Assembly: GCA_024405635.1 (NCBI GenBank)
Contig: JAKSOL010000004.1
Span: 86,919-150,918, forward strand
Source of the DNA: Salinivirgaceae bacterium
GTDB lineage: Bacteria; Bacteroidota; Bacteroidia; Bacteroidales; SZUA-534
Direction: 5' to 3'
DNA: 64,000 nucleotides
Of this stretch, positions 23,564 through 26,174 are shown in pieces. Numbering within the stretch: the stretch's first letter is position 1; each line of letters starts with the position of its first letter. A program made the translations under genes and the position numbers. The notes beneath the pieces are model-generated. The model saw only the letters and a program-made list of their open reading frames with translations. It was not told where the DNA came from and ran no database searches.

Positions 23564-24406
23564 ATGATGGAAGCTGAATACACCACCATAAAACCGCAAT
23601 CGAGTCTGCTCGACATTGACATGAAAGAGTTGTGGCGATACCGCGATTTGATTTACATGTACACCAAGCGCGACATTGTTACATTCTACAAGCAGACCAT
23701 ACTTGGTCCGCTTTGGTTTGTAGTTCAGCCTGTTCTTACCACCGTAATGTTCATGTTTGTGTTTGGCAACTTGGCAGGAATCTCCACCGATGGCATTCCT
23801 GGCGTGTTGTTCTATTTTAGCGGCATCATTATTTGGAACTACTTTGCCGACTGCCTTAACCGCAACTCAAAAACCTTTACCGACAACCAAAGCGTTTTTG
23901 GCAAAGTGTATTTCCCCCGTTTGGTTGTGCCCATCTCCGTAACCATTTCAAACCTAGTTAGGTTTCTCATTCAGTTGGTGCTATTTGTTGTAATTTATTT
24001 GTACTACATAATTACAGGCGCAGGCATATTGCCTAACCTTTATTTGCTTTTGCTGCCACTGCTTGTGCTGATGACCGCAGGCATAAGTCTTGGTTTCGGC
24101 ATAGTGTTTTCGTCGCTTACAACCAAATATCGCGACCTTACCTTCCTCCTTCAATTTGGCGTGCAACTTTGGATGTACATAACTCCAATTATCTATCCAC
24201 TTAGCAGCATATCGGCCGACAAACAATGGCTAATACAGCTAAATCCAATGACATCGATAATTGAAACATTCAAGTTTGGAGCCTTAGGTACAGGCGTATT
24301 CTCGTGGGGGTGGTTAGGCTACAGCTTCGGATTTATGACTCTAATATTGTTTATTGGCATAATCATTTTCAACAAGATAGAGAAAAGCTTTATGGATACG
24401 GTGTGA
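23564..24406 (+). CDS. wzm: Polysaccharide ABC transporter permease
   Basis: ELWRYRDL, YKQTILGPLW, KVYFPRL, KYRDL, LNPMT. Confidence 0.93.
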   Translation: MMEAEYTTIKPQSSLLDIDMKELWRYRDLIYMYTKRDIVTFYKQTILGPLWFVVQPVLTTVMFMFVFGNLAGISTDGIPGVLFYFSGIIIWNYFADCLNRNSKTFTDNQSVFGKVYFPRLVVPISVTISNLVRFLIQLVLFVVIYLYYIITGAGILPNLYLLLLPLLVLMTAGISLGFGIVFSSLTTKYRDLTFLLQFGVQLWMYITPIIYPLSSISADKQWLIQLNPMTSIIETFKFGALGTGVFSWGWLGYSFGFMTLILFIGIIIFNKIEKSFMDTV

Positions 24407-24408
24407 AT

Positions 24409-24443
24409 TCGGCTATTTGCTTTTGGCTTTTGGCCATTAGCAG
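24409..24443 (+). repeat. Five degenerate 7-nt repeats (consensus TTGGCYW), left arm
   Basis: TCGGCTA TTTGCTT TTGGCTT TTGGCCA TTAGCAG, starting 3 nt after the wzm stop. Confidence 0.8.
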
Positions 24444-24479
24444 TGGCTGATGCAAAATTGTTAACCAACAAAAAAAGGA

Positions 24480-24857
24480 ATGAGAGATTTTAGAAAATAT
24501 GATGTTTGGAAATTGGCAATGGTCTTAACTAAAGACATTTACAACATTTGCGCTACATTCCCACAAAAAGAGCAATTCTCTTTAGCAAATCAAATGTGCC
24601 GCGCTGCTATATCCATTCCTTCAAACATTGCAGAAGGATGTTCTCGAAGTTCCAATATTGAATTTGCAAGATTTATTGAAATAGCTATGGGCTCTGCTTT
24701 TGAATTAGAAACGCAATGCGAAATAGCAGAAACCATTAATTACATAACAACAAATCAAAAGGACAGTTTAATAGAAAAACTTAATATTATTCAGCGCCAA
24801 TTAAATGCGCTTAATAGCAAAATTAAACCGCAAAAGAAACCAAAGGCCAATAGCTAA
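24480..24857 (+). CDS. Four helix bundle protein (23S rRNA intervening-sequence protein family, TIGR02436-like)
   Basis: DFRKYDVWK, FPQKEQFSLANQMCRAAISIPSNIAEGCSR, FIEIAMGSAFELETQ. Confidence 0.93.
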   Translation: MRDFRKYDVWKLAMVLTKDIYNICATFPQKEQFSLANQMCRAAISIPSNIAEGCSRSSNIEFARFIEIAMGSAFELETQCEIAETINYITTNQKDSLIEKLNIIQRQLNALNSKIKPQKKPKANS

Positions 24858-24878
24858 TGGCCAATAGTTAATAGTTTG
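24837..24878 (+). repeat. Six degenerate 7-nt repeats (consensus WRGCCAA), right arm, inverted relative to 24409-24443
   Basis: AAACCAA AGGCCAA TAGCTAA TGGCCAA TAGTTAA TAGTTTG; spans the four-helix-bundle stop codon. Confidence 0.8.
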
Positions 24879-24881
24879 AAC

Positions 24882-26174
24882 ATGCCCACAGCAATAAAAA
24901 TAGAAAACCTAAGCAAGCAATACCGTCTTGGAGTGATTGGCACAGGCACATTGAGCCACGACCTTAACCGTTGGTGGACCATGAATGTGTTGCGAAAAGA
25001 AGACCCATACCTTAAGATAGGCGAGACCAACGACCGCACCACACGTGGCGAATCGGACTATGTGTGGGCCTTGCGCGACATAAACATGGAAATAGAGCAA
25101 GGCGATGTGGTTGGCATTATTGGCAAAAATGGAGCAGGAAAATCAACGTTGCTGAAAATCCTATCACGCGTTACTAAACCCACAACAGGCACAATTAAGT
25201 ACCGCGGACGCATTGCTTCGTTACTCGAAGTGGGCACTGGTTTTCATGCCGAAATGACTGGACGCGAAAACATATACATGAACGGCTCCATAATGGGCAT
25301 GACACGCGCCGAAATAACCCGCAAACTCGATGAGATTGTCGATTTTGCCGGCATTGAGCGCTACCTCGACACTCCCGTAAAACGCTACTCAAGCGGCATG
25401 ACCGTTCGCCTCGGGTTCTCCATTGCCGCCCACTTGGAACCCGATATCCTTGTAGTTGACGAGGTTTTGGCCGTTGGCGATGCCGAATTTCAAAAGAAAG
25501 CCATTGGCAAAATGCAAGACGTAAGCAAAGGCGAAGGCCGTACGGTACTGTTTGTGAGCCATAATATGGCGAGTGTAAAAAGATTATGCAAAAATGGCAT
25601 ATTATTAGAAAATGGACTAATCAAAAAATCGGGATTAATCGACGAAGTCATCGATTACTATATAGACAACTATCAATCAGAGAAATCAATGCCATATGTG
25701 GAAGTGACCAAAGAAATGCATGACAAAAATAGAAGTTTGAAAGCAAAATTTCTTTCGTTTGAACACATAAAAGGATCCACTAAATATGCAACGGACGAGG
25801 ATATTGTTTTGCGAATAAAAATATACTCTGATTATGACATTCAAAATTGCAGAATAAATTCAACCGTTTATACATCTGAAAAAGTGGCAATATGCAATAA
25901 CTCTTCAGAAGACTATTTCCATATTTATGCTGGCCAAACGATTGATGTTGAATACATCATTCACAATCCCGGATTAGTCATAGGCAATTACAATATGAAT
26001 TTTTCTATTGGCATAGGGAATATGACTGAAGGTGAAACCAATTACGATGTAGTGAAAGCTCCTATAACATTTGAGATTGACAAGCCTTACAAAGATGAGA
26101 ATAAGTACTATGTCAAATGGGACAAACATGGATGGGGGAACATATACATGCGTACGGAGACAAGAGTCCTTTAA
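24882..26174 (+). CDS. wzt: Polysaccharide ABC transporter ATP-binding protein with C-terminal Wzt_C-like domain
   Basis: GKNGAGKST, YSSGM, DEVLAVGDAEFQKK, VSH; ATG at 24882 preferred to TTG at 24876. Confidence 0.93.
   Translation: MPTAIKIENLSKQYRLGVIGTGTLSHDLNRWWTMNVLRKEDPYLKIGETNDRTTRGESDYVWALRDINMEIEQGDVVGIIGKNGAGKSTLLKILSRVTKPTTGTIKYRGRIASLLEVGTGFHAEMTGRENIYMNGSIMGMTRAEITRKLDEIVDFAGIERYLDTPVKRYSSGMTVRLGFSIAAHLEPDILVVDEVLAVGDAEFQKKAIGKMQDVSKGEGRTVLFVSHNMASVKRLCKNGILLENGLIKKSGLIDEVIDYYIDNYQSEKSMPYVEVTKEMHDKNRSLKAKFLSFEHIKGSTKYATDEDIVLRIKIYSDYDIQNCRINSTVYTSEKVAICNNSSEDYFHIYAGQTIDVEYIIHNPGLVIGNYNMNFSIGIGNMTEGETNYDVVKAPITFEIDKPYKDENKYYVKWDKHGWGNIYMRTETRVL

Follow-up and report, generated by a model that had tools for sequence, protein, structure and literature searches.

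The closest published relative of the cassette described here is the intervening sequence (IVS) of 23S rRNA which bears an open reading frame (ORF). In the available excerpts of PMC4990558, the IVS of Coxiella burnetii lies in helix 45 of the 23S rRNA and has a 28-bp terminal stem which is cut mid-stem by RNase III, with the S23p ORF lying in the loop; tandem heptamers of the sequence GACAGAT, the number of which varies by strain, are found upstream of the ATG of S23p. ORF-bearing 23S IVSs are also named in these excerpts for Leptospira, Xanthomonas and Brucella. The S23p/IVP family, first found in rRNA IVSs, has since then had no function assigned to it, and the domain was still termed functionally uncharacterized in a 2024 preprint.

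Arrays of 7-nt units are known from several bacteria. According to the consulted sections of Rehm et al. 2015 (PMC4692102), Xanthomonas carries GGGAATC arrays, often as convergent inverted pairs (70–75 array pairs are convergent, with the G-rich strand first), and Nostoc carries GGGGAYT arrays; heptanucleotide elements are reported for Geobacter metallireducens in the consulted sections of PMC2700814. In these sections the repeats are regarded in both papers as G-quadruplex or regulatory elements, and PMC4692102 states that there was no detailed literature on bacterial heptamer repeats as of 2015. The terms S23, intervening and four helix are absent from the main texts of both papers, which do not link the repeats to this gene family or to an enclosed gene.

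We analysed a window of 64,000 nucleotides (the whole stretch of DNA presented above), in which a gene of the family of 23S rRNA intervening-sequence proteins and two arrays of heptamers lie between a wzm-like and a wzt-like gene. The features of the locus are as follows:

23564..24406, + strand: wzm-like ABC-2 permease gene, the upstream neighbour (PF01061 ABC2_membrane, 66 bits; ORF table)
24404-24406, + strand: wzm stop, 2 nt ahead of the left arm
24409..24450, + strand: left (5') arm, five to six in-phase heptamers with consensus TTGGCYW and G > C (lag-7 self-match; pairing with the right arm)
24451..24479, + strand: A-rich stretch which separates the left arm from the ATG, likely the translation-initiation region of the cassette gene, as judged from the sequence
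24480..24857, + strand: 125-aa four-helix-bundle gene of the family of 23S rRNA intervening-sequence proteins (PF05635, TIGR02436, PDB 2GSC, AF2 model)
24837..24878, + strand: right (3') arm, six in-phase heptamers with consensus WRGCCAA, the inverted complement of the left arm (lag-7 self-match; 26-bp duplex)
24882..26174, + strand: wzt-like ABC ATPase gene with a Wzt_C domain, the downstream neighbour (PF00005, 77 bits; PF14524, 32 bits)

We found that 24407-24881 occupies the whole of the wzm-wzt gap and that its content is the 125-aa PF05635/TIGR02436 gene with the flanking heptamer arrays. The right arm terminates 3 nt short of the wzt ATG (24882), and the last seven codons and the stop of the cassette gene lie inside it. 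An earlier note on this DNA had given coordinates for the wzm stop, the wzt ATG and the arms, all of which are correct against the sequence, and had stated that the right arm codes for the final KPKANS* and ends just ahead of the wzt start, which the ORF at 24480-24857 bears out.

We compared the cassette with the systems above. Like 23S IVSs, it encodes an S23p (PF05635) protein, and it also agrees with those described in the excerpts of PMC4990558 in its size (about 430-480 nt), in the terminal stem of about 26-28 bp which closes a stem-loop, in the position of the ORF in the loop and, for the Coxiella IVS, in the tandem heptamers between the 5' terminus and the ATG (five to six at 24409-24450). 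Unlike 23S IVSs, it lies between protein genes and not in an rRNA helix, with an ABC2_membrane gene on one side and an ABC_tran/Wzt_C gene on the other, and its processing is only predicted, unlike that of the 23S IVSs in the same excerpts for which RNase III cleavage was demonstrated. The Coxiella ORF appears, in these excerpts, to be decaying and unexpressed, whereas the cassette ORF is intact and has a full-profile match. The cassette is IVS-like by anatomy, but it is not an rRNA IVS. Like the Xanthomonas array pairs in the sections of PMC4692102 cited above, its arms are intergenic tandem 7-nt units in convergent inverted orientation, with the same G-rich-first polarity. We found no description of this design outside rRNA in the searchable, non-subscription literature.

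MITEs, REP/BIME elements and integron cassettes are small elements in intergenic DNA which are bounded by inverted repeats. The present cassette resembles integron cassettes in having a promoterless ORF which is co-oriented with its neighbours and tightly packed between them. Unlike all of these elements, it has arms which are tandem arrays differing from copy to copy and a cargo which is not a transposase, and no integrase, attC site or target duplication was seen.

Only one ORF is contained in the cassette, and it is not a transposase (ORF table and profile search). No recombinase, nuclease, integrase or attC site was seen within 24407-24881, and inspection of the sequence by eye found no direct repeat outside the arms which could represent a target duplication; we agree on both counts with the earlier note, which had seen no transposase and no clear target duplication. 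A search of 24200-25100 against Rfam returned no match at E ≤ 1, PADLOC returned no match to a defence-system model, and a promoter and terminator scan of the region returned nothing beyond shuffle expectation, with no + strand terminator predicted within the cassette. On the minus strand, a local hairpin of the right arm followed by a T-run (24845-24862) is terminator-like; sites of this sort are no more numerous in the region than expected from shuffles. The genome contains two PF05635 genes, both of which lie between protein-coding ORFs and neither in rRNA.

The encoded protein matched PF05635 with 126 bits (cut-off 33.8), covering profile positions 2-106 of 106, and TIGR02436 with 122 bits (cut-off 24), covering positions 1-109 of 109. 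Its closest solved protein by sequence is XCC0516 (PDB 2GSC, E = 2e−22). The AF2 model (pLDDT 94.8) contains four helices (8-24, 35-54, 59-85 and 91-115) and superposes on 2GSC with TM values of 0.89/0.95, and likewise on BT_0352 (PDB 2RLD), which is a member of the family; Bacteroides thetaiotaomicron also gave a match to the family in a control search. These profiles and the model support the earlier note's description of a compact stem-bounded cassette with an IVP/Avd-fold gene. The crystals of 2GSC and 2RLD contain five chains each, and the excerpts of PMC4990558 describe 2GSC (XCC0516) as a homopentamer; by analogy with these solved relatives, the cassette protein is probably a nucleic-acid-binding pentamer.

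The four-helix-bundle fold is shared with Avd, which is part of a reverse-transcriptase ribonucleoprotein (PDB titles), and the AF2 model matched the Avd structures of diversity-generating retroelements (DGRs; 4DWL, 8UB7) with a TM of about 0.73 at 13% identity. This likeness, together with weak matches to the Avd models, is what would be expected if the gene were a DGR remnant, that is an Avd which has lost its reverse transcriptase and repeats. However, both of these matches are under cut-off (PF22296 28.1 vs 40; NF033474 21.5 vs 80) and the neighbours are wzm and wzt. There is also no RVT_1 match in the whole 99.8%-complete genome, and with no reverse transcriptase found in the genome this is not a DGR. 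We consider an origin as a DGR remnant to be highly improbable.

The left heptamers at 24409-24443 read TCGGCTA, TTTGCTT, TTGGCTT, TTGGCCA and TTAGCAG, followed by TGGCTGA at 24444-24450, and the right heptamers at 24837-24878 read AAACCAA, AGGCCAA, TAGCTAA, TGGCCAA, TAGTTAA and TAGTTTG. The five left TTGGCYW heptamers and six inverted right heptamers of the earlier note are present as described, with TGGCTGA as a possible sixth left unit. The 12-nt inverted repeat which it reported is exact, with 24430-24441 being the reverse complement of 24853-24864, and its three G-U pairs (G24426:U24868, G24425:U24869 and G24419:U24875) exist in the 26-pair register. As RNA, the arm duplex has 26 pairs, including 4 G-U, at −36 kcal/mol. 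We also ran the fold of 24400-24890 which the earlier note had suggested, and the two arms are joined in the minimum-energy structure (z −2.15).

The inverted-match score of the arms is 26, compared to 15.0 ± 2.5 in dinucleotide shuffles; this score was reached by 4 of 1000 shuffles, and it was not reached in any of 1500 trials in which the same geometry was placed at random in the genome. The lag-7 self-match is 0.57 in the left arm and 0.66 in the right arm, values equalled or exceeded by 1 and 0 of 1000 shuffles, respectively. It should be noted that the copy described here is a weaker example of the design, the family median score being 32.

We examined three further sets of loci: 29 from 40 related genomes, 80 from named genomes across a wide range of phyla (among them Bacteroidota, Planctomycetota, Verrucomicrobia, Proteobacteria, Actinobacteria, Nitrospirae, Clostridia and Omnitrophota) and 20 extra copies from three genomes. 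The family was carried by 35 of 41 genomes (the 40 relatives and the present genome), with as many as 16 matches per genome. Together with the two copies of the present genome, the first two sets make up 111 loci, 109 of which had usable flanks. Arms were scored by comparing the 150 nt upstream with a segment made up of the final 60 nt of the ORF and the 120 nt which follow it, and 206 shifted placements drawn from the same loci served as controls. Inverted arms scored above the 99th percentile of the controls in 82/109 loci and above all controls in 74. By the score used, neither inverted nor direct arms were found in 21/109 loci, while arrays in direct orientation only were found in 6/109 and both orientations in 15. 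Direct rather than inverted arrays were observed at L057, L095, L101, L004, L073 and L107, with L057 having GACTYT hexamers on both sides.

The score of 26 at the present locus is barely over the best of the 206 controls (25), as could be the case for chance matches or for ordinary slippage-prone simple repeats unrelated to the gene. Such an origin nevertheless has next to no credibility given the shuffle and placement tests at the locus and the recurrence of inverted arms, with changing units, in 82/109 loci.

Periods were analysed in 77 loci with clear arms, after five near-duplicate ids had been left out. The best period was 7 in 54/77 left arms and 54/77 right arms, vs 9/152 control segments. 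A period of 8 was best in 13 left and 16 right arms, periods of 6, 9 and 10 also occurred, and among the 20 extra copies, a lower-scoring set, periods of 6-10 were common. These counts, with those for inverted arms, are in line with the earlier note's proposal that homologues are flanked by inverted 7-nt arrays; we rejected a strictly 7-nt period.

The unit sequence was found to change between cassettes, also within the sets of 10, 8 and 2 copies from three single genomes, while the complementarity between the arms of each copy persists. The two copies of the present genome have different units (TTGGCYW-type and TAATGWT). As the unit differs among copies within one genome, the arms are set by the cassette and not by the host. 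Protein identity and the sharing of arm k-mers were correlated (rho = 0.21, 0/500 permutations as high), and most protein pairs at 45-50% identity had no arm k-mers in common. As the correlation is weak, a one-to-one specificity between protein and arm unit was rejected.

The arms also have a strong polarity. The 5' arm contained more G than C in 68/77 loci (with 6 opposite and 3 tied) and likewise in 10/13 further loci (with 1 opposite and 2 tied), giving 78/85 untied loci when pooled. With the arms inverted relative to each other, the polarity is the same whichever strand is read. It is a newly found constraint which is not predicted by a simple stem model. One possible reason is that a C-rich, G-poor first arm, which would be single-stranded for ~400 nt, would invite Rho-dependent termination; another is that a G-poor second arm may avoid spurious starts ahead of the next gene.

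The cassettes are tightly placed between their neighbours. Across the family, the distance from the end of the left arm to the ATG has a median of 31 nt, and the right arm begins a median of 6 nt past the ORF stop, frequently overlapping the end of the ORF, as at the present locus. Between the upstream stop and the left arm the gap has a median of 4 nt, and between the right arm and the next start one of 11 nt. The upstream neighbour was co-oriented in 70/74 loci, and both neighbours were co-oriented in 59/70 loci where both were found; a crude baseline, taken from the present genome only, is 0.775 for one neighbour and 0.614 for both. The cassettes are operon passengers, and this placement suggests that the ORF depends on read-through transcription.

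The position of the right arm, which stops 3 nt before the wzt ATG, could also be explained by a host regulatory device recruited for glycan export, in which the stem would sequester the wzt initiation region or determine the wzm:wzt ratio. Such a stem would be opened when translation of the cassette ORF runs on into the right arm, and the related genome G022 likewise has an IVP cassette in its wzm-wzt gap. However, the same design was found between unrelated genes in 100+ loci and consequently shows no specificity for glycan export, the cassette of G022 differs in its unit and encodes a protein which is just 36% identical, and other relatives have other occupants in the gap or a rearranged locus. 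We regard a regulatory device of this kind as improbable. The earlier note had suggested control of wzt translation among the roles of the element; with the same design present in unrelated operons, nothing ties it specifically to control of wzt.

The second PF05635 gene of the present genome lies in a sister cassette:

Contig C5:62660-63084 (L002:1449-1868; L136), between argC-like and aminotransferase-like ORFs: sister IVP cassette with TAATGWT / WCATTA arms

We found that the site of this sister cassette is empty in five relatives, in which the flanking genes are 10-21 nt apart. At the same site the TAATGWT arm is present in G024, and inverted arrays without a gene are present in G025 and G011.

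The wzm-wzt gap was found to hold three different arm families in relatives. The G022 cassette in this gap has an 8-nt unit, ACGAATCA, and this different unit, together with the low identity of the protein, suggests an independent arrival. In G018, G012 and G020 (L034, L035 and L036), ~8-17 GGAGTTA-type heptamers lie straight after the wzm stop with no IVP gene; the array is followed by three direct repeats ~45 nt apart with the common core CGTACATAAAATGTG, and in two of these three genomes an ATPase-like gene is inserted between wzm and wzt after the array. In G024 the sole array between wzm and wzt is the complementary CTCCTAA, next to wzt. Solo arms remain in this gap in L034-L036 and L039, and the wzm-wzt locus is rearranged in two genomes. 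In L037 and L038 (G004 and G015), a large ORF breaks the operon right after wzm; its start is topoisomerase-like by a reading of the translation, and it may mark the border of an integrated element. Only in a distant wzm/wzt pair (L049, 34% identity) are the two genes adjacent, lying about 20-30 nt apart according to tblastn coordinates.

The earlier note had looked to empty wzm-wzt alleles as a sign of acquisition. No clean empty allele was found among close relatives, in which the gap holds other occupants, and neither an empty allele nor a deletion joint was found in samples X2, X4 and X5, where contigs can hide rare variants; an empty site was found for the sister cassette, in the five relatives mentioned above. 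In the samples with the cassette, the left junction is spanned by contigs of X2 and X4 and the right junction by contigs of X4, while a single contig of X2 covers 24317-24895. In X2, which is an independent metagenome run, contigs break at both cassette edges (24317-24365 and 24893-24895), which fits repeat arms disturbing short-read assembly. The cassette is discrete and acquired, as indicated by the empty sister site in five relatives and by the three arm families in the wzm-wzt gap, and this gap is a hot spot.

The unit families of the two cassettes in the present genome are also found in arrays without a gene. The present genome contains 28 further TTRGCYNx3 arrays, vs 0-19 for eight permuted-unit controls, and 11 further TAATGWTx3 arrays, vs 0-3 for controls. 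TAATGWT arrays are far more numerous than IVP genes (23 in the present genome, 91 in G024, 49 in G032 and 33 in G020), and the reversed control pattern was counted 0-3 times in array-rich genomes. They are also lineage-specific, with 0 in all seven genomes of genus g7 (among G000-G040). Gene-less arrays are frequently clustered in composite arrays. In the present genome we observed composite intergenic clusters with no IVP gene at C8:40600-43100, C4:60480-60790, C16:1-240, C26:18600-18990 and C35:10850-13650; these string together 7-8-nt arrays of TAATGWT, WRGCCAA, ACGATTCA/ATCAACAA, GTTCTAC and AACTTAA, partly as nested hairpins. In the C8 cluster the arrays occur with short GC-rich palindromes (GCCCTGAAAGGGC). 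Other array families in the present genome have no cognate IVP gene.

We also counted the mismatches between the two arms. In the aligned arms of the 77 loci there were 2201 Watson-Crick pairs, 99 G:U, 93 A:C and 243 other mismatches; per locus, G:U outnumbered A:C in 26, A:C outnumbered G:U in 23 and the two were tied in 28. The 13 further loci gave 27 G:U vs 25 A:C, so that the pooled count is 126 vs 118, a count which is uncalibrated against known RNA stems. The earlier note had taken the G-U wobbles at this locus as a sign of selection on RNA pairing, but family-wide there is no excess of G:U which could serve as an RNA signature. The arm mismatches look like unfiltered noise. The similar numbers of G:U and A:C, together with the differences in unit number between orthologous cassettes (L003 vs L005) and among the Coxiella strains of the PMC4990558 excerpts, point to complementarity which is maintained by rapid DNA-level turnover of the arrays. 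Such upkeep is compatible with a stem which acts in RNA, and the counts leave room for one. The single RNA run (X8, kept as contigs) had contigs on wzm 23900-24188 and wzt 25209-25400 only and is uninformative on the cassette.

Several of these observations bear on a DNA-level mobile element, for which the inverted arrays would be a hairpin or cruciform substrate for insertion, excision or copying, the pentamer a mobilisation factor and the gene-less arrays non-autonomous or decayed copies. The presence/absence polymorphism at the sister site, the three arm families and solo arms of the wzm-wzt gap, the variable copy number of the arrays and the equality of G:U and A:C, as expected from DNA copying, all argue for this, as do the extra TTRGCYN and TAATGWT arrays, the latter lineage-specific and outnumbering IVP genes, and the weak correlation of protein identity with arm k-mers. 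However, neither a recombinase nor a nuclease is encoded in the cassette, a target duplication was not seen, the family has no known catalytic function, and no reverse transcriptase was found in the genome. In addition, the three other samples gave no empty allele or joint, the genome has array families without a cognate IVP gene, and arm k-mers are not shared by most protein pairs at 45-50% identity. We consider a mobile element of this kind possible, though on balance doubtful; that the arms take part in spread at the DNA level is a serious rival, and it is compatible with RNA processing. A wider proposal, which we hold to be rather unlikely, is that the PF05635 pentamer and short-period inverted arrays constitute a new class of selfish element without a conventional recombinase, in which the protein would act in trans on matching arrays and the gene-carrying cassettes would be autonomous.

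The explanation which we favour, with a confidence only a little better than even, is that 24407-24881 is an acquired cassette of the 23S-IVS kind in a protein-operon spacer, the arms of which would pair in the transcript so that RNase III can release it. The element is a real IVS-type cassette outside rRNA, and it is its mechanism that we infer. Its anatomy is an array with units of ~7 nt, a ~30-nt A-rich leader, the four-helix-bundle gene and these same units in an inverted array, with the arms abutting the wzm stop and the wzt start. The cassette would have no promoter of its own and would be transcribed along with the operon. In the transcript the arms would pair into a stem of ~26 bp, a pairing which tolerates shifts of register because both arms are tandem repeats. 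RNase III is encoded by the host (TIGR02191, 199.8 bits) and the stem is a plausible substrate for it; by analogy with rRNA IVSs, the enzyme may cut the stem, so that the cassette RNA is parted from the cistrons of wzm and wzt. As the mismatch spectrum suggests, the arms would stay complementary mainly through fast turnover at the DNA level, by gain and loss of units and copying between arms, and not through selection on RNA acting base pair by base pair.

It should be noted that a number of findings count against this IVS-type explanation: the similar numbers of G:U and A:C, the 21/109 loci without arms, the 6 loci with direct arrays only, the periods of 6 and 8-10, the polarity of the arms and the lack of a clean empty wzm-wzt allele in close kin and in three samples.

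The new observations are the arm polarity in 78/85 loci, the three arm families at the wzm-wzt gap, the empty sister site and the many gene-less arrays of the same unit families. The PF05635 gene normally travels within a stem of inverted short-period arrays, co-directionally in operons. This gene-in-array-stem design links two puzzles, namely the function of the S23p/IVP family and the heptamer repeats of bacteria, and it is of importance for annotation, since operons are split and assemblies broken by cassettes of this kind. If the selfish-element reading were true, it would explain why intergenic heptamer repeats have long been seen in excess in bacteria, the tens of gene-less arrays per genome among them, and the IVSs of rRNA would merely be copies which have landed in rRNA.
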